Assembly: GCF_056712565.1 (NCBI RefSeq)
Contig: NZ_CM160072.1
Reading direction: 5' to 3' (one strand)
DNA: 64,000 nt
Shown: positions 395-45,181 of the stretch, piece by piece
How the letters are laid out: each line of letters opens with the position of its first letter
How positions within the stretch are numbered: position 1 is the stretch's first letter
Position numbers and translations under genes: made by a program
The notes under the pieces: model-generated
Database searches by the model: none
The model's input: the letters and a program-made list of their open reading frames with translations, nothing else
What the model was told of the DNA's origin: nothing

Positions 395-396
395 GG

Positions 397-2971: not shown

Positions 2972-2980
2972 TTATTCACC

Positions 2981-3442
2981 TCACGTACTCGGATCATCTT
3001 TCTCGATGTAAAACCGATTCCACGTAAACGCGCTTTTGTTACCACTACCGCGAGGCATGTCATTTCGCCGCTCAAGTGGTGGTATTTTGGTTAAAGCGAT
3101 ACAGATTGTCTGATATGCACTGTCAGCAGCGGTAAGGAGAGCGTCTGACGGCTGAATGACGTTATCCATGCACACTTGCACAGCGAGTTTCAAAGCGACG
3201 CCATCATTTGCCCATGCAGGGATGCCTGAATCATCGTCAGGTAACGGCATGATGCCGTTTTCTGTATCAGCAAACTGATACCCAAGCTCGATACCTTTCG
3301 CCTGCCATGCTGCCATCATGTCTTCGAGGTCATTAATGGCATCTTCAATTGCCTGAGGGTCAGCATCTGTCAACGTGGCATTGGAATACAGCCCGGCTTT
3401 TCGTAAAGCCTTTAGAACGAGATCACCCTTCGTTTTCGCCAT
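2981..3442 (-). CDS. Tail adaptor / head-completion protein (P22 gp4-like)
   Basis: 153-aa ORF immediately downstream of coat gene region, as in P22. Confidence 0.55.
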   Translation of the reverse strand: MAKTKGDLVLKALRKAGLYSNATLTDADPQAIEDAINDLEDMMAAWQAKGIELGYQFADTENGIMPLPDDDSGIPAWANDGVALKLAVQVCMDNVIQPSDALLTAADSAYQTICIALTKIPPLERRNDMPRGSGNKSAFTWNRFYIEKDDPST

Positions 3443-3611
3443 CTTCTTCCGCCTTAGCCACTTTTTGCTTCGTTGCGGTTTCTTCAGGAGTTTTTACCCA
3501 ACCTTTTTTCAGGTGAGATTTAACTTCTTCGTCATCAACAATGATGTAATCGACAGCAAACTGACCGCAGGTGATCATGTTGCCTGGCTTATAGAGCATT
3601 GTTCGTGCCAT
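3423..3611 (-). CDS. Small hypothetical protein between coat and gp4-like genes
   Basis: 62-aa ORF from internal ATG at 3611 with GGGAGAAG Shine-Dalgarno; overlaps gp4-like start by 20 nt. Confidence 0.3.
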   Translation of the reverse strand: MARTMLYKPGNMITCGQFAVDYIIVDDEEVKSHLKKGWVKTPEETATKQKVAKAEEDGENEG

Positions 3612-3652
3612 TGTCTTCTCCCAATAAAAATGGGGCCGAAGCCCCACCAAAA

Positions 3653-4906
3653 TTACTGCCCAGCAATAACGATGCCCGTATATTCAGGAACCAGTACAGA
3701 GCAACCGTACAGAGTGGTGAAACGCGCAGTGGTTACGCCTTTGATGTGGTCGAAGGAGTAAGACATGATCAGCGTAGCGCCCTGCTCGGTGGTTGCTGTC
3801 ATTACCTGTGGACCCTGACCAGTTGGGAACGCCAGTTTGCCGTACATCAGTTCAACAGAACCATCAGCCCAGAACAGGTTAGCAGGTGCTGCGTTCTTGT
3901 TGAGAATGGTGATTGCTGCTGATTCTGCCGGTTTGGCATCGACGTTTGCATATGGACGACTCGCAACATCAGTATTTTCAACAGGGAGAATCTTTGGAGA
4001 AATTGTTACGGTAGTTCCGCTAACAGCCAGAACACGGAATACCTGCGGTTGACCGGTGGTATCTTTTGTGATCTGGTGTACGGAATTCACACCGGCAATG
4101 GTGAACGCATCACCAACCTGCAAGCCAGATGCAGATACCGTAATAGTCCCCTGTCGGTTATCAACTGGCATACCATTTGAATCTTTCGCTTCAACCTTGT
4201 GTTCAGGTTGGCCTGATACTGTCAAGGATTCAGTGCTTCCTTTCGGTAATCGACCAGAAATATCGGTCTTGTAGCTATCAAAGGAAGCAACCGGAGGGAT
4301 CTGCGCTTTTTCGTATGCTGTCAGGGTTGCGCCCTGAGCGTAGGCTCGGTGACCAAGCTCGCCAGCAAGGTCTTTGTAGTTGAAGGGGTTCCAAAAAGAG
4401 CGGCGGTTGATACCCTGTGGCACACCAATCGCCGTCATGGTGGCATCAATACCTGCCGCACAGTTCCACAAATCACGGCCCTGTGAACCAGTGGTTGAGT
4501 CAGCCATTGTGATCACGTTAGTAGCACGCTGCGTGACCATGGAAATCAGGTCAGAGTCAATCTGTGCAGCAAGGCGCATACCTGCGGCGCGACCAGCTTC
4601 AGTTTTATGCTCAGGGTCACGCATTTCACGCGCATCCAGAGTGTACAGAATGTTTTTCGGCTCCTTGAACACTGAAGGAACAAGGCGCTGAACCAGTGCT
4701 GTTGGCGTTTTGCTGCTGAGGTCGAGGCCTTCCTCAATGTTCATGTGGTAATGCTGCGGACGATACAGAACATCACCTGCTCGCTGCATTGCTGTATCAC
4801 CGGGACGGAATTTTTTAGCGTTACGGGAAACTACGCAGGCGGCCTCAAAGCCTTCAACGTAGTTTTCGAACATGATTTCAAGGTCTTTTGCTAATTGGTT
4901 ATCCAT
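3653..4906 (-). CDS. Major coat protein (P22 gp5-like)
   Basis: 417-aa ORF; C-terminal half shares motifs with recalled P22 coat (FAGV, NxFWADD, SxP); follows scaffold gene. Confidence 0.85.
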   Translation of the reverse strand: MDNQLAKDLEIMFENYVEGFEAACVVSRNAKKFRPGDTAMQRAGDVLYRPQHYHMNIEEGLDLSSKTPTALVQRLVPSVFKEPKNILYTLDAREMRDPEHKTEAGRAAGMRLAAQIDSDLISMVTQRATNVITMADSTTGSQGRDLWNCAAGIDATMTAIGVPQGINRRSFWNPFNYKDLAGELGHRAYAQGATLTAYEKAQIPPVASFDSYKTDISGRLPKGSTESLTVSGQPEHKVEAKDSNGMPVDNRQGTITVSASGLQVGDAFTIAGVNSVHQITKDTTGQPQVFRVLAVSGTTVTISPKILPVENTDVASRPYANVDAKPAESAAITILNKNAAPANLFWADGSVELMYGKLAFPTGQGPQVMTATTEQGATLIMSYSFDHIKGVTTARFTTLYGCSVLVPEYTGIVIAGQ

Positions 4907-4924
4907 GCTTAATGCTCCGATAGG

Positions 4925-5818
4925 TTATTTTTTTGCCTTTTTAGCGGCGAAATACGGCGTCCAGTCACCAGTTTCCAGCGCCTTGGCTTTCAATTTGTCG
5001 AGGTTGTTGATTACTGCGCCGTTGCTCCCCTTAACCGTCGGGGTTGTGGCTGCCGTGGTTTTTGCTTTTGGCATGATTCTGGCCTTCGATTCGATACGTT
5101 CCAGCAGACGACCAATTGCTACGGGGTTGGTAGCTTCTGCCAGTTGCTTGCGCAGTTCAGCGTTGCGACCAAGCGCCAGAACAACGATTTCCGGCTTCTC
5201 TGACTCAAACAGGATCGCGTTTTGTGTCTCGATGGGGATTTCCTCGAGTACGGCCTGCTCAGCTTCCTGATAGCCAGGAACTTTGAGAGCCTTAACACGT
5301 TGCTGATATTTGGATAATCGCTCTTGATAGGCAGCCTGAAGCTCCTGCTCCTTCTGCTTGCGAGCCATCTCCTGTTGCTGGTACTTGCCATTATCCTCTG
5401 CCCACTTAGCCATGCGTTGCTGGTAGATTTCTTCATCGAAACCGATGTCCTCATCATCCAGTTTTGGCATTCGCGGTGGTTGAGTGATTACCGGCTGCTG
5501 CTCGACGGGTTTCTGAGACTGACGCATCAGCTCTTTCAGCTCGCGGTCTTTCTCTTTAATCGTCTTGCGCAGGTGTTTTACCAGTCCATGCTCAGCGCCA
5601 TCTTCGCTGGTTGGCGAATCCAGCTTTTCGTCACCAAAGTAGAATTCCTGTTCTGATTCGTCGTCATCAGTTTCAGTAGCCTCCTCTGCATCATTGCCTG
5701 AGGACTCACTGCCATCTTCTGTTTCGACTTTTTCAGCCAGTTCGACATCATCAGGAATCTGCTCTGACGCGTCGGTTTCGATTTCAACTTCTGGTGTGTT
5801 TTCTGCCATCTGGTCCAT
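4925..5818 (-). CDS. Scaffolding protein (P22 gp8-like)
   Basis: 297-aa ORF, highly acidic N-terminus and charged helical composition, between portal and coat. Confidence 0.7.
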   Translation of the reverse strand: MDQMAENTPEVEIETDASEQIPDDVELAEKVETEDGSESSGNDAEEATETDDDESEQEFYFGDEKLDSPTSEDGAEHGLVKHLRKTIKEKDRELKELMRQSQKPVEQQPVITQPPRMPKLDDEDIGFDEEIYQQRMAKWAEDNGKYQQQEMARKQKEQELQAAYQERLSKYQQRVKALKVPGYQEAEQAVLEEIPIETQNAILFESEKPEIVVLALGRNAELRKQLAEATNPVAIGRLLERIESKARIMPKAKTTAATTPTVKGSNGAVINNLDKLKAKALETGDWTPYFAAKKAKK

Positions 5819-5908
5819 TTGTTACCCCTGTTTACTCGATGTTCAGCCCATCGGAAGGCAATAGGGTGCCAGGCCTCATAAAGACAGCCATTGCACGTTA
5901 TGGGTTAA

Positions 5909-8107
5909 TTACTGCTGTGGTTGTTGCTGAGTTGATTTTTGCAGGATGCTGCTGATGTCCATGCGCTGCGCATGGCCCTGTGCCTGACTTTTCAGGACAA
6001 GCTCTGCATCAGCACGGGCATTGTCTCCTTGCTGTTGCTGGAACTGTCCGAGCAGTTTCAGAGCCTCGCGGATATCAGATTTCTGCTGGCTATCGGCAGA
6101 TGCGAGGATTTTCACAACATTTGCCGCTGCAACCTGAGCATCAGTCTGTGCCTGGAATGCTTTAACCTGAATGGCTGCCTGCTCGTTCTGCGCTTTCTGC
6201 AATTCAGCCTGACCAGCAAGAAGCTGACCTTGCGCAGCAACCATAGCCGGATCTGGCTGACTGGCCTGTTGTTGTTTCGCCTGCTCAACCATCTGCTGTT
6301 CTTCTGGCGTTCTCGGCTTGATAACTCCAGACAGAAGCAACTGATTGCGGTTGTATTCTTTAAGGTCGTCCATCCCTTCGCCGTCCATATTGTCGAGGAT
6401 CATCGACGATACAAGGTCGTGTTTCGGCGTTCCGGGCGGGATAAGTGCCAGCATGGAAAGTAACGACTTAACCGTTGCGTCACGGCGAGTAGCGAACGAC
6501 TGACCGACATCGACAGTCACTTCATAGTTACCCTGCGAAAGGTCGTTAAGCGCGATAACCTGCCCTGTCTGACGGTCAACCACTTCACCAGTCATCAGCG
6601 CCACGTCATCGCTGCCGTCCTCATTAACGATACGCATCGGCGTATCGCTGCCATAGACTTCACGAGCCATAGAAAGCCACACAACGCCAGCGCGACGCAT
6701 GGATTTAGCCATGTTGTCCATGTAGATATAGGACTGCGTATCCATCCGGTTAAAGATGCTATCAACGGTATCGGTAGCAACGTTGCTCGGCATGTTCTCA
6801 AGCTGCGACGCACCTGTAATTTGCTGAATAGCCGTTCCGGTGTACTGCAATAGCCCGGCAAGAGCTGGAGGCATTTGTGTCGGAGGCGTATAACTGCTGA
6901 CCTGAGCCTGCGCAGTAATATCTCCGTTTTTGTTTTTCAGACTGACCATCGGCAGGAACGCCGGGCGCTTTTTGTTGCGCTCCGCCCAATGAGTGGCGAG
7001 AGGACCAGGAATCATGTCAACATCAACTACAGGAATGCCATCACCGCCAGCCTGAGTAGCGTTATCTGCAATCATGGAAACCATCAGGTTCTCAAGACGC
7101 TGTGCATCCATCGCTTTTGCTGCGTGGCCTTCGATTCGTTCCTGATTATCAACAAATGAGCGACGTCCATATACCGGGATGAGAGGAATATGTTCGCCCG
7201 GAATACGCTTCGGTTCTTCCAGCCATTCAGCGCCAGACAGAAGGCCGCAATAAACGCGGCGTTTCTTCACCGTTCGCTCGCCAATCAGTTCGAATGCACC
7301 ATCGGTCAGCTCGTCGACAATATCTTTGATTTGCTCTTCATCATAGATTGCCGTTTCTCCGCTAACAGGGTTGCGCCATGCCGTGAGCTTCACCTTCTCT
7401 ATGCGAACTTCGTAGTAGCGCCCAACATAGATGGCATCTGGCGTTGACCAGTCATATTGAGTGCCAGTCTCATCACGAGAAAGGCCTGCCGCGATGGAAT
7501 CAGGGTATTCAGCCTCGAACGCTTTAGGCGTCATGGAGAACATTTCCATAGCCCACATAGCATCAGAACGGTCATATTGCTTGCTGTCCTGATCGAAGAA
7601 GACGCATGTCGCTGGGTCGTAAACAGGAAGAAGGCTGATGCGTCGCTGCTCGTTACTTGGGTCCATTTCATCTTCGTAATCGGCACACATGCGGAAACAA
7701 CCGAATCCGCCCGTTACAGCATCATCAAATGCGTTATCACACGCTTCGCCACCTGATGTTTCCTGATAGTCAGCGCGGAATTTGCCGTTCATCTTTTTGG
7801 CTAACGCTTCCGATGCCTTGTCATCCTTCGGCCTGAATTTAACGCTGATGCGATTCTGTCGATACTCGCCAATGATGCGATCACATTCACGGGCAATCTT
7901 ATTCAGTTCAAAGCGCGGGTAATGCTCAAACCTGCCTTCATCAAATGAGTAACCAGCGTTTGTGCTGCCTTCCCACTGTGCGCCGGATACCCGGACGAAA
8001 CGTTGAGCCTCAATAATCTGCTCACGCATATCCTGCGTTGCTGACCAGGCATTATCAAAGTTGCACAGCACCTTGCGATGCCAGTCAGTCATCTTTTTTT
8101 CTGCCAT
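5909..8107 (-). CDS. Portal protein (P22 gp1-like)
   Basis: 732-aa ORF directly downstream of TerL; long Gln/Ala-rich C-terminal helical tail as in P22 portal barrel. Confidence 0.85.
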   Translation of the reverse strand: MAEKKMTDWHRKVLCNFDNAWSATQDMREQIIEAQRFVRVSGAQWEGSTNAGYSFDEGRFEHYPRFELNKIARECDRIIGEYRQNRISVKFRPKDDKASEALAKKMNGKFRADYQETSGGEACDNAFDDAVTGGFGCFRMCADYEDEMDPSNEQRRISLLPVYDPATCVFFDQDSKQYDRSDAMWAMEMFSMTPKAFEAEYPDSIAAGLSRDETGTQYDWSTPDAIYVGRYYEVRIEKVKLTAWRNPVSGETAIYDEEQIKDIVDELTDGAFELIGERTVKKRRVYCGLLSGAEWLEEPKRIPGEHIPLIPVYGRRSFVDNQERIEGHAAKAMDAQRLENLMVSMIADNATQAGGDGIPVVDVDMIPGPLATHWAERNKKRPAFLPMVSLKNKNGDITAQAQVSSYTPPTQMPPALAGLLQYTGTAIQQITGASQLENMPSNVATDTVDSIFNRMDTQSYIYMDNMAKSMRRAGVVWLSMAREVYGSDTPMRIVNEDGSDDVALMTGEVVDRQTGQVIALNDLSQGNYEVTVDVGQSFATRRDATVKSLLSMLALIPPGTPKHDLVSSMILDNMDGEGMDDLKEYNRNQLLLSGVIKPRTPEEQQMVEQAKQQQASQPDPAMVAAQGQLLAGQAELQKAQNEQAAIQVKAFQAQTDAQVAAANVVKILASADSQQKSDIREALKLLGQFQQQQGDNARADAELVLKSQAQGHAQRMDISSILQKSTQQQPQQ

Positions 8108-8108
8108 A

Positions 8109-9524
8109 TCAACCTACACCACAAGGAATTGAGTAACTGGAATAGTCGGGTTGCGCAGCCGACTCCGGGCAATGCATACACATCATCAGCGCATCAGCCA
8201 GGTTAGGAGATGGGATACCGAGCTTCTGCTTCATTTCGACCTTAGTCATAAGCTCCAGTTTCCCGTTATTATTGAATTTGCGCTGAATCTGCGTCAGTTC
8301 TGCAAACAGTTTCTCCAGCATCTTCTCGCCTATCGCTTCTTTGTCGAAGCTCAGCATGTCGTCGGGGTCTGCATACTCACCGTGGACAACCGCCCGATAT
8401 GTCAGATACAGCCTGTCAGCCAGCGCGTAATAGAATTGCGCTCGCTTATTGCGGAATACATCGCCAATAGTGCGAACGTTGTCACCCTGTACGACTTCAT
8501 CAGCCCATGCTCCGGCCTGATACGGAGCATCTTCATCGAATGGCGATTCGCTGCCCTTGAACATCGTGGCGGTAATTTTCTTGCCGGAGAATGCTTCCGT
8601 TGTCTGTCTGCGTAGCCCTGCACCGACACCATCGCCATCCCACAGGTAATGGTCAGCGCCGTCTTCAATCGCCAGCGAAGTAGCCCAGTCAGCACCCTCG
8701 TTGATGTCCATCAGCAGACCTTCGGCAATGCGCTTAACTACCGAACCGTGACGCGATGCATAACCTTTAGCATCTGGCCCTGTATCTGATGGGTCATGCG
8801 CAGAGACAACAGCGCCTTTCGCTTTCCATCCGAGTTTCTTGTGCGCATCGGTTGCGGCTTCAAGCCATTCACGTTTGATGATTGCCATATCACTTGCGCT
8901 TACTGGCTCACCAAGCCAGATGTGACGATACAGTGTCGGGTTTCTGCGTTTACACTCTTCCATCTCCAGACGGAGAACTTCAGGAAAGTGCGGGTTGTCG
9001 GTGTAGTTCACCGTCAGCAGACAAATATCATCGGGAGGGTTTACTACGAATCGCTGATAGGTATCGTCGAGGATGTTTTTCGGGTTGAAGCTCACCCATA
9101 TTTCGGAAAATGGCTTGCGGATGGTTGGTATCAGGATATCCCATGATTCCTTCGTTACCGCTTCCGCTTCCTCCACCCAGCAGATATCAATGCCTTCGAG
9201 CGATTTAATCTTCGTCGGGTTGTTTTTGATGCCGTAGAACATGAACTCAGCATTCGTCCCGAGATGACGAATCATGGAACGCTGAATTTCAAACTCAGCC
9301 GTATACCCTTCACGCTCTATGGTGTCTTCAAGCAGCCGGATTACCGAATCGCTGATACTGTTTTGCAGTTCACGAGCGCAGAGAATACGCACTGGCTGCC
9401 GACGCGCCGCTTCAACAAGCAGTCTCGCAATTGCCCATGATTTACCGCTACCTCGACCGCCTTTGGCGACTTTGTAGCGATGCGCCTCAATGAACGGTTC
9501 AAAGATAGGATTAATCGAGGTCAT
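8109..9524 (-). CDS. Terminase large subunit
   Basis: 471-aa ORF with Walker A (KGGRGSGKS) near N-terminus; overlaps TerS stop by 4 nt. Confidence 0.9.
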   Translation of the reverse strand: MTSINPIFEPFIEAHRYKVAKGGRGSGKSWAIARLLVEAARRQPVRILCARELQNSISDSVIRLLEDTIEREGYTAEFEIQRSMIRHLGTNAEFMFYGIKNNPTKIKSLEGIDICWVEEAEAVTKESWDILIPTIRKPFSEIWVSFNPKNILDDTYQRFVVNPPDDICLLTVNYTDNPHFPEVLRLEMEECKRRNPTLYRHIWLGEPVSASDMAIIKREWLEAATDAHKKLGWKAKGAVVSAHDPSDTGPDAKGYASRHGSVVKRIAEGLLMDINEGADWATSLAIEDGADHYLWDGDGVGAGLRRQTTEAFSGKKITATMFKGSESPFDEDAPYQAGAWADEVVQGDNVRTIGDVFRNKRAQFYYALADRLYLTYRAVVHGEYADPDDMLSFDKEAIGEKMLEKLFAELTQIQRKFNNNGKLELMTKVEMKQKLGIPSPNLADALMMCMHCPESAAQPDYSSYSIPCGVG

Positions 9525-9961
9525 TTTCCGAATAGAGTACTCATCGGTGATGTTTCAATCTGGATTGCGCCGCCGTCTTTGCCTGTTAGCTCGTGATCAA
9601 CCTTGTCGCGCCATTTATCCTTCTGTCGGTTCTTAAGCCAGAAGATGGCAGCTGTTGTATCAGGCGGGTAATACTTCTCAAGAGGAGTTTCGACAATTCT
9701 GTTTTCAATAACACGAATATCGATGTCTGGAGCCACGAAGCCCATAGCGCGTTGATAAAGACGGTCACTAACTTCTGCATCAGCGACGGCCTTACCCTTT
9801 TTTATGGACTCCGAAAACTCAGGATAATCAAGCTTCCACTTGTTAATAGTTGACTCACTGACTTCGAAGAAATCAGCAAGCTCTGCATCGGTGTAGCCCA
9901 GCAAGCACAGTTTGCGTGCCTGTTCGGCATACGCCTCTTGATACTTTGTTGGGCGCGCCAT
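9521..9961 (-). CDS. Terminase small subunit
   Basis: 146-aa ORF immediately upstream of TerL with HTH-like N-terminus (YTDAELADFFEVSESTINKW). Confidence 0.7.
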   Translation of the reverse strand: MARPTKYQEAYAEQARKLCLLGYTDAELADFFEVSESTINKWKLDYPEFSESIKKGKAVADAEVSDRLYQRAMGFVAPDIDIRVIENRIVETPLEKYYPPDTTAAIFWLKNRQKDKWRDKVDHELTGKDGGAIQIETSPMSTLFGK

Positions 9962-9963
9962 GT

Positions 9964-10206
9964 TTATGCTCCGGTGGTGAACAGGTCTAACGCTTCCTTC
10001 GATTTACGCACCGCTTCGATAGTGCGGGTCGTGATATCTGAATTAGCGCCGCCTGACTGGAAGTGAATTTTGAATAGCTCAAGCTTCAGTTCGTCAGTGC
10101 CAATGAACTGAAATGCTTCCTCTGCGGCTGCGTTCTGGTTCATGACCAGCTTGTAAATCTCTAACTGGAATTTCTGTTCTTCAGTCATGGGAATAATCTC
10201 TGCCAT
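9964..10206 (-). CDS. Hypothetical protein (80 aa) upstream of terminase
   Basis: ORF with GGAG Shine-Dalgarno 9 nt upstream of ATG; P22-like phages carry a small ORF here (memory, low certainty). Confidence 0.45.
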   Translation of the reverse strand: MAEIIPMTEEQKFQLEIYKLVMNQNAAAEEAFQFIGTDELKLELFKIHFQSGGANSDITTRTIEAVRKSKEALDLFTTGA

Positions 10207-10433
10207 TGTTGGCTCCGTTTATCCGTTAAAAGGGATATCAGTTAAGTTATCCCGTGTAGGGTATAAGCCATTGTCGAGACCACTCATTGAATGGTCTCTG
10301 CAATAACCGATGTCTTTCCATCAGTCCGCCACCACAAAGAATCTTTTTTGCCATAAGGCAGGAGGTTCATCTTTCAGTGGCTGCCAGTGTTATTTCCCCA
10401 CTTTCTGGCTTGGGTTGTTTCGCTGTACTGCCG

Positions 10434-11045
10434 TTAATTGGTGAGTCCGGGGATTACGGTTTGCCCGTGCTGTTCAAGGCGTTCAATTCTCGCCAGTAGC
10501 TGAGGCTTCTTAATTTTTCCCCAGCGATTAAGCAGGCGGCCTGACATGCTGGCAACATCCTTCTCTTTCATGTACTCCAGCATTACGGCATTTCTCTCTT
10601 CTTCAAATTGACGATGACCAACCTGAAGCATGGCGTACATCCAGTTGAATGCGTTGATGTAAGCAATTTTGATACGCATTGCTTCTTTTTTGGTGTAGGA
10701 CATAACCAAAAGCATCAACCCATCCTTGCGGAGACGGTAGAATTTTTGCGGCTTACCATTCTGTAACTCATTGTTTTTATAGCAAAGCTCAAAGTTGAGC
10801 TTTGTATCAAACTCAGGAGGGCAAGCTTCTATGGTTCGTTCAATGTCACGAACCACGTTCTTCGGCAGCTTTCCAAATGCTTTTGCCACCATAAAAGAAT
10901 CTGTAACCGGATCGTTGTTTGCTACAAAAATTAGGTCTCTGAAATCTATATCGTTAACAACGGTTGGGTAGTTCATTGCGTCTTTACCTTTTAGAAAGAT
11001 GAGCCTGTTCGCACAGAAAAGCCGCCCCGAGATGGTCGCCACCAT
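10434..11045 (-). CDS. Rha-family phage regulatory protein (late-region copy)
   Basis: 203-aa ORF; N-terminal segment resembles Rha/ORF6N DNA-binding domain; true start may be internal ATG at 10976. Confidence 0.55.
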   Translation of the reverse strand: MVATISGRLFCANRLIFLKGKDAMNYPTVVNDIDFRDLIFVANNDPVTDSFMVAKAFGKLPKNVVRDIERTIEACPPEFDTKLNFELCYKNNELQNGKPQKFYRLRKDGLMLLVMSYTKKEAMRIKIAYINAFNWMYAMLQVGHRQFEEERNAVMLEYMKEKDVASMSGRLLNRWGKIKKPQLLARIERLEQHGQTVIPGLTN

Positions 11046-11123
11046 ATACGGCAGTTCTCAGGCTCAGCTTTCTGAAAGACTCGGGATTGTTACGCGCTGC
11101 GATGCGCGGTTTACTGCAGATAT

Positions 11124-11147
11124 AAAAAAGCCCCGCGAATGCGAGGC
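11124..11147 (-). terminator. Hairpin plus U-tract downstream of lysis cassette
   Basis: Minus strand GCCTCGC-ATTC-GCGGGGC followed by TTTTTT. Confidence 0.4.
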
Positions 11148-11321
11148 TAAATCCTGGTATTTGTAATGACTGGCTCTTATCTCAACGCAGCCCCTTACCG
11201 CGCGCCAGATGCTCAATATCAAGCATCAGCAATGAGATGTTTAATCTGGATTCACTCCAGAAGTGATCACCACCCTGTCTACAGAGCCAGATGTGAAGGA
11301 TGATGAGTAAAATTATCGCTA

Positions 11322-11759
11322 TCATCGAAGGCATTGCGTCCTGATGTACTCCTGCAGGTAGTTAACCTGCGCGGTTATCCTGTCGATTCCACTTCGGAGA
11401 CGGTAATAATTGAGTTCAGCATCTGCTGTAAGTCTTGGGTTTTCTCCATCGCCCATGCTGCTGGCTCCGGTCGTTGACTTTGCACAGGTGGCGGCGACTT
11501 GCAGGCGCTTACGCCCAGCAGAAACATCAGCACGGAGACTTTCGATAGTCGCGTTAGCATCAGCAAGCTCCTTTGTGTATCTTGCGTCGAGTTCTGCTAC
11601 ATCACGTTGACGCTTCCGCATATCAGCGATGATGGATGTGGCTTTATCGCGCTGCTCTTTGTAGGCGATTGCATTATCACGGTAATGATTAACAGCCCAT
11701 GACAGGCAGACGATGATGCAAATAATCAGAGCGGAGATAATCGCGGTGACTCTGCTCAT
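11322..11759 (-). CDS. Rz: Spanin inner-membrane subunit Rz
   Basis: 145-aa ORF with N-terminal TM segment and coiled-coil body; ATGA overlap with R stop. Confidence 0.85.
11375..11566 (-). CDS. Rz1: Spanin outer-membrane lipoprotein Rz1, embedded in Rz in a different frame
   Basis: ORF nested in Rz with signal peptide, lipobox (VSAC) and proline-rich stretch. Confidence 0.7.
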
Positions 11760-12232
11760 ACCTCAATCTCTCTGACCGTTCCGCCAGCCTCTTTGAATTT
11801 TGCAATCAGGTTGTCAGCCTTATGCTCGAACTGACCATAACCAGCGCCCGGCAGTGAAGCCCAGATATTGCTGCAACGGTCGATTGCCTGACGAATATCA
11901 CCGCGGTCAATCATCGGTAAAGCGCCACGCTCTTTAATCTGCTGCAATGCCACAGCGTCCTGACTTTTCGGAGAGAAGTCTTTCAGACCAAGCTGCTTAC
12001 GGTAGGCATCCCACCAACGGGAAAGAAGCTGGTAGCGTCCGGCGGCTGTTGATTTGAGTTTTGGGTTTAGCGTGACAAGCTTGCGAGGGTGATCGGAGTA
12101 ATCAGTAAATAGCTCTCCGCCTACAATGACGTCATAACCATGATTTCTGGTTTTCTGCCGTCCGTTATCAGTTCCCTCTGACCACGCCAGCATATCGAGG
12201 AACGCCTTACGTTGATTATTGATTTCCACCAT
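11756..12232 (-). CDS. R: Endolysin (lambda R-type lytic transglycosylase)
   Basis: 158-aa ORF matching recalled lambda R sequence and length. Confidence 0.9.
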
Positions 12233-12539
12233 CTTCTACTCCGGCTTTTTTAGCAGCGAAGCGTTTGATAAGCGAACCAATCGAGTCAGTACCGATGTAG
12301 CCGATGAACACGCTCGTTATATAAGCGAGATTGCTACTTAGTCCGGCGAAGTCGAGAAGGTCACGAATGAACCAGGCGATAATGGCGCACATCGTTGCGT
12401 CGATTACTGTTTTTGTAAACGCACCGCCATTATATCTGCCGCGAAGGTACGCCATTGCAAACGCAAGGATTGCCCCGATGCCTTGTTCCTTTGCCGCGAG
12501 AATGGCGGCTAACAGGTCATGTTTTTCTGGCATCTTCAT
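12216..12539 (-). CDS. S: Holin/antiholin (lambda S-type, dual start)
   Basis: 107-aa ORF beginning [22 protein letters not shown]..., near-identical to lambda S as recalled; GGGGG Shine-Dalgarno within upstream hairpin. Confidence 0.95.
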
Positions 12540-12664
12540 GTCTTACCCCCAATAAGGGGATTTGCTCTATTTAATTAGGAATAAGGTCGATTACTGATAG
12601 AACAAATCCAGGCTACTGTGTTTAGTAATCAGATTTGTTCGTGACCGATATGCACGGGCAAAAC

Positions 12665-12694
12665 GGCATGAGGTTGTTAGCGCAACCTCATGCC
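12665..12694 (-). terminator. Candidate tR'-like terminator between late promoter region and S
   Basis: 12-bp perfect stem (GGCATGAGGTTG/CAACCTCATGCC) with 6-nt loop, followed on minus strand by GTTTTG. Confidence 0.45.
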
Positions 12695-13135
12695 ACCCGC
12701 TTTCACGAAGGTCATGTGTAGAAGGCCGCAGCATAACTATCACTGATGAATTCAGGATAGCCAGTGGCTACGGCTCAGGTTGGGTTGTGGCGGTCGGTGC
12801 TGAACTCCGACTTAATGACGATAGGCGTGTACCGACGCCTCGTTTTACTTCCTCCGCTTTCACGGCTTCACCCTAGACCAGCTTTACGAAATCCTCGTAA
12901 ACCTAACCGCGGCAGATATGACCGGCACGGTGTGCCATATCACGGACCGGCGGGTGTCTCGTTCACCTGATTAACGCATCAGCCTGCGTATTCACCACAA
13001 CGATAAGAGTACTGCGCGGCACCTTTCACCAATTCCGCGAGGTCTGCGGGTTCAATGCTCTTACCTGTTGTGCAAACAAAAAAGCCACCGTTGCAACTTA
13101 AGAGTCACTAACGGCAGCTTACCTTCTAATTATGG

Positions 13136-13654
13136 CTAAATGGATAATTGCATGTCAAGGTTTTTAACAGCAACATGCTTAACTTTCTCAACACGTTTAC
13201 GCATTTTGAAAGCATTTTGCATTGGCTGGTATAAAACAAATAATGACGCTTTCAGGATGTCGTCAATTTCGTTTCTACAGGTTGCCAGTGAAGGTTTTCT
13301 CCATCCCTCGCCACCACGTCCACACATCTTGCGTGGCTTTGCAGTCGCGTGATAGTAGGATGCAATTGCTCGCTTAGATGAACCATGAGCGTAGTAGCTG
13401 AGGAGGATGCCAAAGGCTTTCTTGTCAATGTACATGACGGAATCAACGACCTGAGAAATCAACATTCCATCATCATCATTACACATTGGCCTTGTCATAA
13501 TTCTTCCCGGCTCTACGCTCTCCATGAACTTCGCTATTACGCTGCTCATGCGCTTTTCCAGACGACCTGAATAAACCCATGCGCCCCACAGTTCAAGCCA
13601 GCCATTCAGCCACTCGTGCTGCTCTTTGGTGAGGTTTAGTTCTCTTATGCTCAT
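13136..13654 (-). CDS. Q: Late antiterminator Q (phage 82/quuD-like family)
   Basis: 172-aa ORF with WGAW and CxDDD motifs recalled from Q82-type proteins; last gene before late region. Confidence 0.75.
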   Translation of the reverse strand: MSIRELNLTKEQHEWLNGWLELWGAWVYSGRLEKRMSSVIAKFMESVEPGRIMTRPMCNDDDGMLISQVVDSVMYIDKKAFGILLSYYAHGSSKRAIASYYHATAKPRKMCGRGGEGWRKPSLATCRNEIDDILKASLFVLYQPMQNAFKMRKRVEKVKHVAVKNLDMQLSI

Positions 13655-13839
13655 CGTCTTCCCCTCTTGCCTTGTTTGACCATCAGGACGCCGTTAACTA
13701 TTACGTGACGCTCGCCTTTGCTGTCTCGGTTGTACTTGAGCACTGTTCCTCTTGCGCAGGAAAGCATCCTCGCCACTTCGGTCTGATTGCCTCGTGTCTG
13801 GATAAGAAGCTCTGGTATCGTTTGAATTGTGGCGTTCAT
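13651..13839 (-). CDS. ninH: NinH
   Basis: 62-aa ORF with GNQTEVAR...RGTV motif matching recalled lambda NinH; overlaps Q start. Confidence 0.8.
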   Translation of the reverse strand: MNATIQTIPELLIQTRGNQTEVARMLSCARGTVLKYNRDSKGERHVIVNGVLMVKQGKRGRR

Positions 13840-14198
13840 GCGTTCTCCAGTTCGGTGATTTTTATTCCAAGCCGTCCGCCTGGTACTTTCACACCACGAA
13901 TTACGCGAATGTCATCGAATTGCTCGTCGTCTTCCGCAAATCCGGCGTGGATAAGGGAGTCGAGTAAACCTTTCAGGATGTTGTCGAGGTCGCGGCGGCG
14001 GGAGTCTGGAACGTCTGCGATGACTTTGATACGGAGTCGTGATTTGGTGAAAATGTCTAACTTGAGTTGGCGGATGATTTGCTGAACGTCTTTTCGGTAT
14101 TTCTGGCCTTTATCGCTTATGTAATATTGGCTTCCCCGTCTTCGCCAGTAGGTATTCACCGACGGCGGGTATGGAAGCACAAACTGATATTCGTTCAT
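13836..14198 (-). CDS. rusA: Holliday junction resolvase RusA
   Basis: 120-aa ORF with PPSxNxYxR, DxRRRDLDN and GGRL motifs of RusA. Confidence 0.85.
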   Translation of the reverse strand: MNEYQFVLPYPPSVNTYWRRRGSQYYISDKGQKYRKDVQQIIRQLKLDIFTKSRLRIKVIADVPDSRRRDLDNILKGLLDSLIHAGFAEDDEQFDDIRVIRGVKVPGGRLGIKITELENA

Positions 14199-14485
14199 GA
14201 CTTAATCTTCCCCTCCCTCAGCAGTATCGCCTGCGTTCTGATCACGCCTTCGAGGTGGTAAAGTCTGGCGTCTTTGTTGTCGAGATTATGGGTGCGTCGG
14301 TCGATTTCATCGTGACACGCACTACAAGCCCATGCACCGATCAGGTCGTCAGGCTTCATTCCCGTTCCGCAAATTCCAGCCATCCGGTAATGTGCCAGAA
14401 CTGTAGTTTCAGGGTTGCCATTGCATACGCCGTAAATACGTACCTGACATTCTCTTCCGCGCGCTTCTTTGCGTAGGTTAGCCAT
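14195..14485 (-). CDS. YbcO-like DUF1364 protein (putative nuclease)
   Basis: 96-aa ORF, Cys/His-rich, resembles recalled DLP12 YbcO; overlaps neighbours by 4 nt. Confidence 0.6.
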   Translation of the reverse strand: MANLRKEARGRECQVRIYGVCNGNPETTVLAHYRMAGICGTGMKPDDLIGAWACSACHDEIDRRTHNLDNKDARLYHLEGVIRTQAILLREGKIKS

Positions 14486-15207
14486 TAAGCAGCCTCCCCT
14501 GTTACTTTCAGCATTCCGTTATCGAGCAGCTTTCTGGTCAGCCACTGTTGACCACGCCCGGTGATTTTTGTGGTGAACGATATCTGTATTCCGTGATTTG
14601 TGTTGACCGCTGTTTCTTTCACTGTGAAATAGCCGCGATCCATATATTCCTGCATTGGCACATTGCGCCGGGAACCTGAAGCAATAAGGATTTTGTGATC
14701 ACGCATCCACGCAAACAGTTTGTTTTGACCAATACCAACAACCTTTGCAAAGTTTCCAATCAAAATTCCGCTGGCCTCGCCAACGCGATCGGCAAACTCA
14801 ACTTTAGGTGCGACAATTGCGAGCTGGTTTTCCAGTTGCATTTTCTGCTCAGCAAGATCGGCAGCAAGGCGCAACGCTTCCGGTAGCGTTTTGGGGATAT
14901 TAACCGCAGCTTCTTCAAGCTCTCGCCAGCGGTCAACAAGGCGAGCGGTGAACTCTGGCGACAACTGGGCAACAACGACAATACTGTCTCGCTTACCTTG
15001 TTCGCCCTCGAAGACGTAATGCTCGTACTGAACATTGAACCCTAAGTTATTGATTCTTTCGGAAACCTCAATTTGAGGAAGCCGGATAACACCATTTTTA
15101 GCCAGCGTTTCGATGGTACGTTTCACATTGTCATGACGCTTACCAACCAACTCAGCAATTTCAATGCTTGTCATTTTGATGGCATTGCCATTCATTAACT
15201 CATTCAT
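14485..15207 (-). CDS. Rha-family regulator / antirepressor-like protein
   Basis: 240-aa ORF; N-terminus MTSIEIAELVGKRHDNVKRTIE is a typical Rha domain. Confidence 0.75.
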   Translation of the reverse strand: MNELMNGNAIKMTSIEIAELVGKRHDNVKRTIETLAKNGVIRLPQIEVSERINNLGFNVQYEHYVFEGEQGKRDSIVVVAQLSPEFTARLVDRWRELEEAAVNIPKTLPEALRLAADLAEQKMQLENQLAIVAPKVEFADRVGEASGILIGNFAKVVGIGQNKLFAWMRDHKILIASGSRRNVPMQEYMDRGYFTVKETAVNTNHGIQISFTTKITGRGQQWLTRKLLDNGMLKVTGEAA

Positions 15208-15376
15208 CGTCTTCTTCCTCGTACATTGAGCTATTCGGATCGCTCATCAGTTCTGCGCAGCAATCGGAGCACACGTGAACTTCAAGCACATGCAGCTTCT
15301 GACCGCAGTTAGCGCACGTTAATGCCCGCTCGACGCTTTCTTTCTGGTATTGAAGGGATTGGGATGGGCTAAGCAT
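15200..15376 (-). CDS. ninF: NinF-like small zinc-ribbon protein (58 aa; below the ORF-track cutoff)
   Basis: Own translation: [58 protein letters not shown]; start overlaps upstream stop, stop overlaps Rha start. Confidence 0.65.
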   Translation of the reverse strand: MLSPSQSLQYQKESVERALTCANCGQKLHVLEVHVCSDCCAELMSDPNSSMYEEEDDE

Positions 15377-15794
15377 TATTGGCGTCCTGCATCATGAGAA
15401 ATACAATCATGGCGGCGCGGAGTGGAGATTCACCGCAGAAGTAGTAGCCAGGAATATTTTCCCATTCCCAACAACCTTCCTCTAAATCACCTCCTGACCA
15501 TGCGCACCATTCTTTTTCCGCTGTCATCCACATAGTGCTGATTTTGCTTTCAGTGATAATTGGCCACGCGTATTCAGGATTATTGCAAGGATTGAAGCAA
15601 TTTCCGTTTGAAGAACGGAAGCCATTAATATCCCTTTTTTGCGTCTGCCAAATAGGACCTCTTTCGTCAGTGGGGATCTCAGAATCGAAGTCTGCTTCGT
15701 CATCAGGTATGAAGAAATGCTCCTCCATATCTAAAGCCTCACATACTCGTCTGTTAATTTCAAAATCACTTAACTGTGAATAATCCATTGTCAT
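15369..15794 (-). CDS. Hypothetical nin-region protein (141 aa, Trp/Cys-rich)
   Basis: ORF from ATG at 15794 with GAGGAA Shine-Dalgarno, ATGA overlap with ninE stop. Confidence 0.55.
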
Positions 15795-15967
15795 TTCCTC
15801 GCACGATGTCTTAGCAACCGGATATCCCACAGGTGAGCCGTGTAGTTGAAGGTTTTTACGTCAGATTCTTTTGGGATTGGCTTGCGTTTATTTCTGGTGC
15901 GTTTCGTTGGAAGGTATTTGCAGTTTTCGCAGATGATGTCGGTGATACTTCGTCGCTGTCGCCTCAT
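15791..15967 (-). CDS. ninE: NinE
   Basis: 58-aa [37 protein letters not shown]... matching recalled lambda NinE; ATGA overlap with ninB. Confidence 0.7.
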
Positions 15968-16374
15968 TCGTACCTCCTGTCGGTAAATCTGACACCCTGA
16001 CCAATAGCCCATGCTGTTGTGTACTCGATCAGACTTGCCATACGCTTCACACTCATCTGCGCGCTGCTTTCGCGAATGTTGACGTATTCGCCTTCAAGCC
16101 CGGGCAAAACATCAGCTTCCTGTTTTGTTGCCACTGCATGACCGCTGATCAACAAAACCTTCCATTGTTCTGGTTTTAACCATTTATCGCGCCACTGAAC
16201 TTGCCTAGCGATATCTGCGACCATCGCGTGAAATTTTGCGTTCTGGTCAAGGTTGCGCTTGTAGTCAGTAATGCGGATGGTGACTGGCTTGTCTTTATCG
16301 AGTGGTGTTGCGAGGATGGCATTTATTGCAGCTTGCTGTTGTTGCTTAGTTCGGAGGAATATTGTTTGCTTCAC
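15964..16374 (-). CDS. ninB: NinB (Orf-family recombination mediator)
   Basis: 136-aa ORF with DQNAKFHAM...QWRDKWL motif resembling lambda NinB. Confidence 0.8.
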
Positions 16375-16385
16375 TGAATACTCCT

Positions 16386-16577
16386 TTATTTTTTATGCCT
16401 GTAACCCCATTCTTCCAGCAACCTTGCGGCGTACCACCCAAGAAACAAAGGAAAGAACATTACAATGAGATATTTCCCGCCACGGTCAATGTTCGAAATT
16501 GACCAGATTACGATGTAACCAGTGCAGGACAGGAATATTACAAACCCCAAAAAGCTACTTCGTCGACTCATGCTCAC
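16386..16577 (-). CDS. Small membrane protein (63 aa, two predicted TM helices)
   Basis: Hydrophobic ORF with basic C-terminus, translationally coupled to upstream gene. Confidence 0.45.
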   Translation of the reverse strand: MSMSRRSSFLGFVIFLSCTGYIVIWSISNIDRGGKYLIVMFFPLFLGWYAARLLEEWGYRHKK

Positions 16578-16991
16578 TCCTTCACTTTGATTCCAGCGGC
16601 GCGGATAGCCTCTACATCGCTTTCGTATTGCGATTCTGCACCTGAGTCATAGCCAATGTGATAATCACCGGGAAGTGGGCCTTTCTTTGGCTTTTGCAGC
16701 TCAATTTCAATAGCTGCTCTCGATGCCTGCCACGTTTGCCAGTGGCCTTGAACATCGTCCATCACGTATTGACCACCAATATCACCACTGCCAATTTCAT
16801 GGTGATTTTCAGGGTAACGGATAAGGTCTGAAGATTCGCCCCCCACGTCGTAACCAACTCTCTTCAAACTGGCATCTGCTTTCGTCATCTTTCATAAGGC
16901 AGTCACATTCAATAAAAATCGGCTCTCCCCAAGGAGTAGAACCTCCGCTATCACACATTCCTGTGTTATTGCACTTTTGGCACTTGCTCAC
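16574..16991 (-). pseudogene. Zn-ribbon protein gene apparently split by a frameshift at a G6 tract
   Basis: 60-aa GTG-start ORF (16809..16991, CxxC...CxC, GGAGG Shine-Dalgarno) overlaps a 104-aa ORF (16574..16888) in another frame; frames join at coding-strand G6 (plus C6 16839..16844). Confidence 0.35.
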
Positions 16992-17003
16992 ATTAACCTC
17001 CGA

Positions 17004-17210
17004 TTAACTCACAAAACGCCACGCCACTTTTGCTACGACAACAGGCATAACACCGATAATCACCCACAGAAAAATGCTACCGAAAAGCACACCAACCAGG
17101 TCTTTACCTTCGCCTACCAACCGGACAAAACTGCTGGCAACCACAATGAACGTCGCCACCATCCACATAGCACCGAGAATCCTCAATGCAGAAAAAATCA
17201 ACTCAACCAC
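17004..17210 (-). CDS. Small membrane protein (68 aa, GTG start)
   Basis: Two hydrophobic helices; first gene after tR2-like terminator, in the position of lambda ren/ninA. Confidence 0.4.
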   Translation of the reverse strand: MVELIFSALRILGAMWMVATFIVVASSFVRLVGEGKDLVGVLFGSIFLWVIIGVMPVVVAKVAWRFVS

Positions 17211-17224
17211 GATTTACCCTCCCC

Positions 17225-17257
17225 CAAATAAAAAGGCCTGCGATTACCAGCAGGCCT
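17225..17257 (-). terminator. tR2-like rho-independent terminator after the helicase gene
   Basis: Minus strand AGGCCTGC-8 nt-GCAGGCCT followed by TTTTTATTT. Confidence 0.6.
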
Positions 17258-17282
17258 GTTACAAGCTCAGTGATGTAGATGG

Positions 17283-18659
17283 TCATACGTCAGCCCCTTG
17301 TGCATATCGTCTGCCACGCGCAGCAGGTGCATTTGATGCTGTGCAAATCTGTCTGGCTTCATCCTGGTCACATGCAACAAAGTGTCCGTTGCAGAACCGC
17401 TGGTAAACCGTACCAAGTGAGCCAAAACGGTTTTTCGTCACGATGATTTCAGCAAATGGCGCGGCGCTACTGTTCTCGTCATATACCGCTTCCCGATAGA
17501 GCATGATGATTGAGTCTGCGTCCTGTTCAATGCTTCCTGAATCACGCAAATCTGCGTTTGTCGGGCGTTTGTTTGGTCGCTTCTCAACATCGCGTGAAAG
17601 CTGACTCAGGGAAATAACCGGTGTTTTCAGGTCTTTCGCCATCGCCTTCAGGCTTCCGGAGATGTGAGCAATTGCGAGGTCGTTGCGGTCTGCTTTCGGC
17701 TTCTCAATCAGGCCAAGATAATCCGCCATGATGAGTGAGAGGTTTGGATTTTCCTGTTTGTGCCGTTCTGCGATTGAGCGTATTTCTTCGACCGATAATC
17801 GCGAGGCATCGACTACCCATACATCCAAATCTGCAAGCTGACTCATGCCGTTAGCAACACGTGCCCAGCCCTCGTCATCCATCGATGCAGGATTTCGCAG
17901 TACGCTAACCGACATCCTCCCGGCGTTGGCAATGCTTCGCTCTGCAATCTGCAATGCGCTCATTTCCATTGAGAAAATCAATACCCCGCGCCGGACGTCA
18001 GAACCAGGAATAACGCGGCTTGCAACGCCTTCGGCAATCTTCAGCGCCAGTTCGGTTTTCCCCATACCAGGACGAGCAGCGATTATCACCAGGTCTTCCG
18101 CGTTCATCCCTCCGGTGATGGCATCAAGTTCTTCGATTCCGGTCTTCAGGGTATCGGACTCTTCTCCGTTCCTCAGACGCCTGTCAAGCGTGTCAGTGTA
18201 GTCGGTGATGATTTCCCCTAACCGTACAGGTTTAACCTCGTCACGGGGCTTTCTGATGGCTGAGAGACGTTTTACAAGTTCATCCATCGCCTGACTCGAT
18301 GCGTCGATGGTTCCGCTTTGGATTGGTTCACGCATTTCATCCATGATTTCCAGCACCAGACGGCGGTGATAGTTATCCGCGACCATTCCGGCATATCCCT
18401 TCAGGTTTGCGGCGCTCGGGCAGTTTTTGCTGGTCATCAGGATTGACGTGAAATGCTCCTCTCCGCACGCCTCGGCAACCATCAGCGCGTCGATTAGGTT
18501 TCTGTTTCTCGCCTGCTTCCGGATAACCTCGAAGGCTTTCCGGTAGAGCGGAATTGAAAACGCTTCCGGCTCCAGCGTTGCAAGAACGTCACTGGCGGTT
18601 GGAGTTAATCCACCAATCAGCAGGCCACCGATAACGCTCGCTTCGATATCCTGTCTCAT
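17283..18659 (-). CDS. Replicative DNA helicase (DnaB-like, P22 gp12-type)
   Basis: 458-aa ORF with Walker A (ARPGMGKT) and DnaB C-terminal domain motifs; overlaps O-like gene. Confidence 0.9.
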
Positions 18660-19603
18660 GCAATCCCCCTGTCTGCAAACTTCCCTTCCCGAACTCCCGT
18701 TAACGAGTCTTCTCTCAGCAGGTAATCAAAATCAGCCGTCCAGCCCGTGTCGTTGTCTCCGAAGTAAAACGGCTTGGCCTGATGCACAAACGCCCTGACA
18801 TACGCTCTGAAACCGTCCACGTTTGGCGTTTTCAGTTGCGGGATGATTTTCTTCAGGCGGCGTTTTCGTTTCTCGTTGACCGCAACAGCGTGTGGCAGTC
18901 TGTCACCGACTTCGGTGTTGTAGGCGTTCAGGAAGGATTCGTAGTCGATTCGTTCTGCCTTGCGACGTTCAGGTTTAACCTGCCCATCGCCTCCCCCATT
19001 GGGGGGTAGGGGGGTATTATTTATATTCTTGTTAATACCTTCTTGTTCATGATGTGCGGTTGTTTGTGCGGCTTCATGTGCGCTTTCATGTGCGGCATGT
19101 ACGCTGAAAGCCGCGCTATTGCTGGCTTCATCATGTGCGGCATCATGTGCGGTTGTTTGTGCGGCTTCATGTGCGGGTAAATTGTCCATTTTTTGAGCAT
19201 ATTCATGGTAATTTGTGATGGTTATCACACGGCCTTTTTGCTTCTCTCCATCAATGGAGATCATCCCCTCTTTCACAAAAACCTGAAGCATCCGCTCAAC
19301 CTGATCACGGCTTGCTGGCTTGCCATGTCTGTCGCATAACTGAAGACCTAAATCAGCTGCTGTCACAACCAGTTGACCGGGTTGCAGATGCCATTCATGA
19401 CCTTTGAAATTCGCTTTGTATGGCTTTCTGGCGGCATTCAGGAGAAGGTTTTCCCACAGGGTGCGAAGATAAACATCTTTCGCCCATGACTGTTTCAGAA
19501 TGCTCCGGTACAACGGAATGTAACCAGTTTTCTGGTTCTCCATCCTGTTGCTCCTGCGCTCGTGTGCGGCGCTGAAATCGTAGATTTTTGCTGTATTGCT
19601 CAT
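18656..19603 (-). CDS. Replication initiator (lambda O / P22 gp18-like)
   Basis: 315-aa ORF upstream of helicase; central repeated [10 protein letters not shown] peptide encoded by DNA iterons. Confidence 0.8.
19040..19190. repeat. Origin iterons inside the initiator gene
   Basis: About eight direct copies of a ~9-12 nt unit (catgtgcgg / ttgtgcgg) in two clusters. Confidence 0.6.
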
Positions 19604-19605
19604 AA

Positions 19606-19878
19606 CTACCTGCCTTGACGAAAGACCTTAAGAACATCGTTAAACTGACTTACGGATATGTCTTCTTTGAGAAGCTTTTCCAGAAATGCGTTTGGAATGA
19701 ACGTATATCCCTCCTCTTTTGGTAGAGACGGGAGCAACGCCCTCGCCTCAGCCTTCAGAAGCTCAGTTCTGGCAACTTTCACAAAAGAGATTTGAGTTCT
19801 TTCATCAATGGAACGAAGGAAGCGCAAACGCTTAGCTTCTTTGTGTGTATCAGGTGGATTAAAGCCTTTGTTTCGCAT
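19606..19878 (-). CDS. Hypothetical protein (90 aa) between cII and O-like gene
   Basis: Internal ATG at 19878 with GAGGT Shine-Dalgarno; basic protein; lambda has no gene here. Confidence 0.45.
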   Translation of the reverse strand: MRNKGFNPPDTHKEAKRLRFLRSIDERTQISFVKVARTELLKAEARALLPSLPKEEGYTFIPNAFLEKLLKEDISVSQFNDVLKVFRQGR

Positions 19879-19900
19879 ATAATTACCTCGTTGGATGTTG

Positions 19901-20194
19901 TTAAAATTCCATTTGTATTTGATCAGAACGCTCGGTTGCCGCCGGGCGTTTTTTATTGGTGAGAATCGAAGCAACTTGTCGTGCCAATCGAGCCATGTCG
20001 TCGTCGACAACACCCCATTCAAGAACAGCAAGCAGCATTGAGAACTTTGGAATCCAGTCCCTCTTCCACCTGCTGATCTGCGACTTATCAACGCCCACAG
20101 CTTCCGCTGTCTTCTCAGTTCCAAGCATTGCGATTTTGTTAAGCAACGCACTCTCGATTCTTAGAGCCTCGTTGCGTTTGTTTGCACGAACCAT
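19901..20194 (-). CDS. cII: Transcriptional activator CII
   Basis: 97-aa ORF MVRANKRNEALRIESALLNKIAMLG...QIQMEF matching recalled lambda CII; AAGGAAAT Shine-Dalgarno. Confidence 0.9.
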   Translation of the reverse strand: MVRANKRNEALRIESALLNKIAMLGTEKTAEAVGVDKSQISRWKRDWIPKFSMLLAVLEWGVVDDDMARLARQVASILTNKKRPAATERSDQIQMEF

Positions 20195-20253
20195 ATGTAA
20201 GTATTTCCTTAACAAATAAGAAGTTATGCGCATCAACTTATGCGCGTTGTATT

Positions 20254-20295
20254 CCCGCATTTCGGCGGGAATGAGGACCATGACTGTTAAAGAGC
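20254..20295 (-). promoter_or_regulatory. nutR (boxA GCTCTTTAAC plus boxB hairpin)
   Basis: On minus strand between cro and cII; boxB CCCGC-loop-GCGGG also found at nutL. Confidence 0.6.
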
Positions 20296-20302
20296 AATTT
20301 GC

Positions 20303-44886: not shown

Positions 44887-45181
44887 ACTTACCTCATTCT
44901 TTAACAGTTTTAGAAAACGCCGCCATCATATTGGGTGAGCATGAAATGAGAAATCAGAGAGCAACGGACATTTTGAAAGGGTTATCTTACAACTGTAGTT
45001 ATTATCGCAAAGCGGCATTTAGTCTTACAGTTGTAGGAATATGCTTCCTGTCACAGAGAACTATTCTTATATACCAAAAAGAGATGTCATTTATTATATC
45101 GATGTAAATACTGATTAATTATATGTAAATACAGCAATAACGTCGTAGGTTTTCAGTGAACCATTTTCAGGATAACTTTCT

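Follow-up and report, generated by a model that had tools for sequence, protein, structure and literature searches.

The interval 11322..12539 of the 64,000-nucleotide stretch analysed here (the window; contig NZ_CM160072.1) carries a phage lysis cassette, and the question that it raises is from which phage lineage, or lineages, its genes were drawn. The initial annotation had taken S, R and Rz/Rz1 to be near-identical to those of lambda, set in a P22-type structural background and ending at a recombination joint near the rha gene. The coordinates that it gave are exact, the interval being filled by four intact ORFs on the minus strand (Table 1). Comparison at the nucleotide and protein levels with the reference genomes of lambda (J02459) and P22 (BK000583) points to a mosaic within the cassette itself: with a probability that we put at about 0.95, the S leader, S, R and the 5' end of Rz represent the lambda allele, and the periplasmic domain of Rz together with Rz1 the P22/HK97 allele. 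The similarities to the reference genomes are far above chance (BLAST E = 0).

Table 1. Positions of the lysis genes and of neighbouring features in the window
Feature	Position	Strand	Remarks
Q late antiterminator, phage-21 type	13136..13654	minus	Pfam PF06530; PDB 6P18/6JNX Q protein, E 1e-91
Candidate late promoter pR'	13129..13158	minus	TTGACA-18-CATAAT; consensus scan, 11/12 matches; overlaps the end of Q
Candidate tR' terminator hairpin and U-run	13076..13120	minus	11+6 bp stem, then UUUUUUGUUUG; Sf6 tR' at matching position
Lambda-like S leader	12540..12789	minus	Roughly CUS-3 'bsq3'; BLAST boundary at 12789
Hairpin upstream of S	12561..12545	minus	AUCCCC-UUAUU-GGGGGU; position of the lambda sdi stem-loop; contains the G-run before Met1
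S	12539..12216	minus	107 aa; intact ORF
R	12232..11756	minus	158 aa; intact ORF
Rz	11759..11322	minus	145 aa; intact ORF
Probable recombination joint within Rz	11643..11700	minus	Informative sites and Sf6 bsq7
Rz1	11560..11375	minus	61 aa; intact ORF; +1 frame, wholly within Rz
50-aa ORF	11182..11334	minus	Overlaps the Rz stop codon; homologue of Sf6 gene 65 and epsilon34 gp67
Terminator-like hairpin and T-run	11119..11148	minus	Consensus scan: 8-bp stem, 6 GC pairs; between cassette and rha
rha-like gene	10434..11045	minus	Pfam PF09669 and PF10549; 52% aa identity to P22 rha overall
Terminase small subunit, TerS	9961..9521	minus	No P22 or lambda hit
Terminase large subunit, TerL	9524..8109	minus	Pfam Terminase_3; Sf6 gp2-type

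In a megablast comparison with phage records, positions 11100..13200 proved 100% identical at the nucleotide level to phage CUS-3 of E. coli RS218 (CP000711), whose record annotates the S holin, R lysozyme, Rz and Rz1 genes (ECRS218_0025–0028), with zero differences within the cassette, and places the boundary sequences bsq3 and bsq4 on either side of it. Positions 1..26772 of the window form the right-hand part of a CUS-3-like prophage that is 99.7% identical to CUS-3 over 1..15423 and departs from the CUS-3 record at 15423–17255 (part of the nin region) and 22051–22881 (an early-left segment). Several ExPEC/APEC chromosomes (ATCC 11775, APEC O1, SF-468 and others) carry the nin variant with 100% identity, so that the window holds a relative of CUS-3 rather than the deposited CUS-3 sequence. 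The interval thus almost certainly represents the lysis genes of the late operon in a CUS-3-like prophage of the P22 family, residing in the chromosome of an extraintestinal pathogenic E. coli: an ordinary four-gene cassette that has been annotated before. Its genes and the joint within Rz are both already known from public records (CUS-3, Sf6) and from the published classification of spanins.

The lambda-like parts begin with S and its leader. The leader (12789..12540) matches lambda 44936..45185 at 240/250 nt (96.0%), versus 57.3% for P22. S itself shares 321/324 nt (99.1%) and 106/107 amino acids (99.1%) with lambda S, as against 88.4% nt and 89.6% amino acid identity to P22 gp13; its sole amino-acid change from lambda, R105G, is also present in Sf6, to whose S protein this allele is identical. 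A match to Pfam PF05106 (105 bits, cut-off 23.8) places the protein in the lambda S holin family of class I holins. The dual start ATG-AAG-ATG (Met1-Lys2-Met3; ATGAAGATG at 12539..12531), from which S107 would begin at 12539 and S105 at 12533, and the 60 nt before it, hairpin included, are identical to lambda, as had been proposed; the only difference from lambda close by is a synonymous TTA/TTG at codon 10 (Leu10). The P22 holin begins MKKM in place of the MKM found here. In both the MFE and the centroid fold, the upstream hairpin has a stem of 6 bp and a loop of 5 nt. Since the folding energy of the 81-nt leader is not better than that of shuffled sequences (z = 0.38), its support comes from identity to lambda and not from thermodynamics. 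On the strength of the 99% identity, S would be expected to form holes at a set time, with S107 inhibiting S105.

R is likewise near-identical to its lambda counterpart, sharing 461/477 nt (96.6%) and 155/158 amino acids (98.1%), so that for both S and R the likeness seen by the initial annotation is borne out. Thirteen of the codons that differ from lambda R are synonymous and three nonsynonymous, the pattern expected under purifying selection, and the catalytic Glu19 is retained. Pfam gave no match to R at E <= 0.001; decisive for the identification were the matches to PHROGs and to the PDB, which include the solved lambda lysozyme (1AM7, E 7e-105; 3D3D, E 8e-103). Sequence, fold and Glu19 together identify the product as a lambda R endolysin, that is, a lytic transglycosylase. 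P22 gp19 is unrelated to R, with no protein hit and 40.9% nucleotide identity. We note that in RefSeq E. coli genomes the identical R gene is mostly named "glycoside hydrolase family 24 protein" and in one of them "family 104 protein", an inconsistency of annotation.

The spanin genes tell another story. As described initially, Rz1 lies embedded in Rz in the +1 frame (offset mod 3 = 1), but the accompanying view that Rz and Rz1 are near-identical to lambda does not hold: Rz as a whole shows 56.6% amino acid identity to lambda Rz versus 93% to P22 gp15, and Rz1 shows 45% over 40 amino acids to lambda versus 95.1% (58/61) to P22 Rz1, the corresponding nucleotide figures for Rz1 being 54.7% and 96.8%. 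Neither Rz, at 56.6%, nor Rz1, at 45% (40 aa), can on these grounds be assigned to the lambda allele or to the lambda o-spanin family. Rz is an i-spanin by its match to Pfam PF03245 (122 bits), with an N-terminal hydrophobic anchor at residues 1–26 and two periplasmic cysteines, Cys92 and Cys143. Rz1 matches Pfam PF06085 (72.7 bits) and is an o-spanin of the HK97/P22 type, with a VSAC lipobox whose cysteine is Cys20 and a proline-rich mature part; unlike lambda Rz1 (C29) it has no second cysteine. In keeping with these assignments, Kongari et al. (2018; PMC6139136, Table 4) list the CUS-3 o-spanin with those of P22, Sf6 and epsilon34 under the HK97 family and not under that of lambda. For lambda, one of the two cysteines Rz C152 and Rz1 C29 is reported to be enough for function (PMC6139136). 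Because Rz C143 is the equivalent of lambda Rz C152 and Rz1 is devoid of an equivalent of C29, the C-terminal cysteine of Rz would carry the required disulfide here.

The division of likeness runs through Rz. For its nucleotides 1–60, identity is 96.7% to lambda versus 68.3% to P22; for nucleotides 61–438 it is 58.3% to lambda versus 93.9% to P22. Measured against these reference phages, Rz thus appears to be a chimera whose first ~20–30 codons are lambda-like and whose remainder is P22/HK97-like. Sliding 100-nt windows, the check by which the lambda likeness was to be mapped, upheld it from the S leader through S and R to ~60–90 nt into Rz, but not for the rest of Rz or any part of Rz1: identity to lambda stays at 92–100% from 12790 to ~11700, falls to 70–75% by 11690–11500 and is at background beyond. 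Identity to P22 is ~90–94% in S and 86–99% over 11740..11331, with a drop to background in R. In a three-way alignment, lambda-specific sites continue down to 11700/11682, and P22-specific sites take over from 11667. The switch from lambda to P22 alleles, which the initial annotation had located near rha, therefore lies inside Rz at ~11700–11667, or about codons 20–31, where the part of the gene that encodes the transmembrane segment ends. That part is nearly the same in lambda, P22 and the window and so offers a natural place for a homologous crossover. The 48-nt 'bsq7 boundary sequence' annotated inside Rz of Sf6 matches window positions 11690..11643 at 48/48 nt, and it follows from that annotation that the joint had been recognised earlier.

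Two other accounts of this pattern deserve consideration. Were S-R-Rz-Rz1 a single lambda-derived module whose only joint lay downstream near rha, one would understand why identity to lambda stands at 97–99% over S, R and the first ~60 nt of Rz and why gene order and the embedding of Rz1 are as in lambda; this account is nonetheless refuted by the sliding windows, by the informative sites, which switch reciprocally at 11700–11667, and by the per-gene identities (58% to lambda versus 94% to P22 for Rz after nucleotide 60; 45% versus 95% of amino acids for Rz1). The published classification moreover sets the Rz1 of CUS-3 outside the lambda o-spanin family, and we reject this account, giving it next to no credence. 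Scarcely more probable is that the drop in lambda identity reflects uneven rates of divergence, with a conserved transmembrane segment and a fast-evolving periplasmic domain, and not recombination. The boundary does fall at the end of a segment conserved in lambda, P22 and the window, but the pattern is reciprocal, with 96.7% identity to lambda and 68.3% to P22 upstream of it and 58.3% and 93.9%, respectively, downstream, and variation in rate cannot swap the nearest relative; the unrelatedness of P22 gene 19 to R also argues for modules with separate histories. We therefore discarded uneven rates as an explanation as well.

The preferred reading remains that of a mosaic cassette, the two parts of which were probably joined through homologous recombination within the conserved part of Rz that encodes its transmembrane segment. 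A joint so placed would keep the C-terminal domain of Rz and the Rz1 with which it interacts together as a cognate pair. As to the direction of the exchange, the evidence of three genomes allows either lambda or the present arrangement to be the recombinant. Lambdoid mosaicism is seen here in textbook form: lysis genes are exchanged as sub-modules with one joint falling within gene Rz, and a joint at the conserved stretch lets the Rz periplasmic domain and the embedded Rz1 move together. The main value of the analysis lies in correcting the annotation: the spanins are of the P22/HK97 type, the terminase is of the Sf6 type, and the breakpoint is in Rz and not in rha.

Set against individual phages, the cassette resembles that of lambda (J02459 45186..46427) in its S leader (96%), S, R and Rz codons 1–~25, and in its dual start, hairpin, gene order and embedded Rz1; lambda differs in having an Rz of 153 amino acids (145 here), another allele of the Rz periplasmic domain and Rz1, the Rz1 cysteine C29, and Q, pR' and tR' of its own type. 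The 13-19-15-Rz1 cassette of P22 (BK000583 38244..39425) is alike in Rz (93%), Rz1 (95%), the holin homologue (89.6% of amino acids) and the downstream orf80 (98.8%), and differs in its unrelated gp19 endolysin and in the first ~20 codons of Rz (68% nt). Genes 60–65 of Sf6 (NC_005344 36463..37820) show the same mosaic arrangement, 97.5% identical at the nucleotide level over window 11160..12778. Sf6 also shares the identical S, a homologue of the 50-aa ORF in its gene 65, bsq7 inside Rz, the phage-21-type Q and the TerL type; it differs in the N-terminal part of TerS and in carrying tRNA-Asn and tRNA-Thr between tR' and S, where the window has a 294-bp spacer.

The function of the cassette may be deduced from its near-identity to the experimentally studied S and R of lambda and 15 and Rz1 of P22, and would correspond to the canonical three-step lambdoid lysis pathway. 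Late transcripts would start at pR' and be antiterminated by the phage-21-type Q. Translation of S from its two starts would then yield the S107 antiholin and the S105 holin in a ratio that the upstream stem-loop may help to set, as in the dual-start antiholin mechanism (PMC9636201). S105 would build up in the inner membrane and trigger at a set time to form large holes, through which the soluble cytoplasmic R transglycosylase could exit and degrade the peptidoglycan. Finally, Rz in the inner membrane and the outer-membrane lipoprotein Rz1 would, as a spanin complex, fuse the two membranes and remove the outer membrane, a barrier that the Rz–Rz1 complex disrupts (PMC6139136).

That the cassette is instead an inactive relic in a decaying prophage, as might be suggested by the two early-region segments in which this prophage departs from the CUS-3 record, we hold to be very unlikely. 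All four ORFs are intact and of full length, the start motifs, lipobox, Glu19 and Rz cysteines are kept, R differs from lambda mostly at synonymous positions, and the DNA of the cassette is 100% identical to that of CUS-3. King and colleagues are said to have described CUS-3 in 2007 as an inducible, virion-forming phage, which we likewise count against decay. The relic was accordingly rejected, on the intact ORFs, the conserved motifs and the identity to CUS-3, and the cassette is taken to be a real, well-known and functional-looking module.

Upstream of the cassette, the late-control genes come from elsewhere. No similarity was found between Q and either lambda Q or P22 Q, and the Q/pR'/tR' region is 98.5% identical at the nucleotide level to Sf6, in which the late promoter at the corresponding site is annotated as nearly identical to that of phage 21. 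Similarity to lambda starts at 12789 (lambda 44936), downstream of this differing module, so that the transition from a 21-type Q module to an S leader of lambda type lies at about 12789. The spacer that separates tR' from the S leader (12779..13072, 294 bp) occurs at full length only in CUS-3 and phage Huey, and to ~80% in IME10. A tRNA scan of the whole window found none, the tRNA-Asn and tRNA-Thr of Sf6 being absent, and an Rfam scan of 9000..14500 at E <= 1 returned only a meaningless snoRNA match well below threshold.

On the downstream side, the 50-aa ORF matches phrog_11822, a family of unknown function, over its full length (E 4e-38) and has a hydrophobic N-terminus. It is annotated in Sf6 and epsilon34 but not in the CUS-3 record, and it travels with the HK97/P22-type Rz/Rz1 in CUS-3, Sf6 and epsilon34, being absent from P22 and lambda. 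The three homologues show just 1–2 differences, all nonsynonymous and too few for a test of selection. That the product is a membrane-associated and uncharacterised addition to the lysis cassette, as its fifth component or as a modulator of it, is a speculation that we consider unlikely. Beyond it lies the GC-rich, terminator-like hairpin, oriented along late transcription, at the homologous spot of which a rho-independent terminator is annotated in epsilon34; Q-modified polymerase presumably reads through it.

The rha-like gene that follows is itself mosaic relative to P22, its 5' two-thirds being ~50% identical at the nucleotide level and its 3' third, encoding the C-terminal ORF11CD3 domain, 92–97%, with an internal joint at ~10605–10640. 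Similarity to P22 stops at 11331, resumes at ~10605 inside rha, runs through orf80, the product of which is 98.8% identical to that of P22, and stops again at 9965. Joints near rha, as initially suggested, do therefore exist, but they separate P22-like from non-P22 sequence (11331, ~10605 and 9965) and not lambda from P22.

The P22-type background that had been ascribed to the structural and packaging genes stands with respect to the type of phage, but not for the terminase. By tblastn against P22, the virion genes are matched in colinear order at 35% (portal), 29% (coat), 41% (gp4), 93% (gp10), 62% (gp26), 93% (gp14) and 82% (gp7) identity, the P22 scaffold protein finding no match in the same search, and they form a P22-like (Lederbergvirus) virion module. 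In agreement with this, the P22-like phages of E. coli and Shigella, CUS-3 among them, were described as syntenic with P22 in the epsilon34 genome paper, though with coat proteins that share only 14–28% identity with their counterparts in the Salmonella phages (PMC2629481). In BLASTP searches, on the other hand, neither P22 gp3 and gp2 nor lambda Nu1 and A gave a significant match to TerS and TerL, so that the terminase does not fall with that of P22; TerL instead matches the 'Gene 2 protein' of PDB 4IDH (Sf6 gp2) with 1049 bits. Nucleotide similarity to Sf6 in the terminase region amounts to 88% and is confined to 7692..9609. TerS is Sf6-like at the nucleotide level only over its last ~90 nt (C-terminal), its N-terminal ~115 codons being unlike Sf6 gp1 and P22 gp3, a pattern suggestive of an exchanged DNA-recognition domain alongside a large terminase of the Sf6 type.

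Of 5426 complete E. coli genomes, 744 carry at least 80% of the cassette, and 4520 carry some part of it. Among phage records, 61 contain at least 80% of this R and Rz arrangement, versus 36 for lambda's own R and Rz, many of these 36 being lambda itself. The same S-R-Rz/Rz1 combination is found in Sf6, epsilon34, HK75, mEp213 and others, and in P22-like phages the lysis cassettes have been described as combining holins and lysins of various non-homologous types (PMC2629481). A 48.4-kb record named 'Campylobacter phage CJLB-4' (MW057783.1) carries R–Rz 100% identical to lambda at lambda-like coordinates and is probably lambda DNA in a misnamed deposit.
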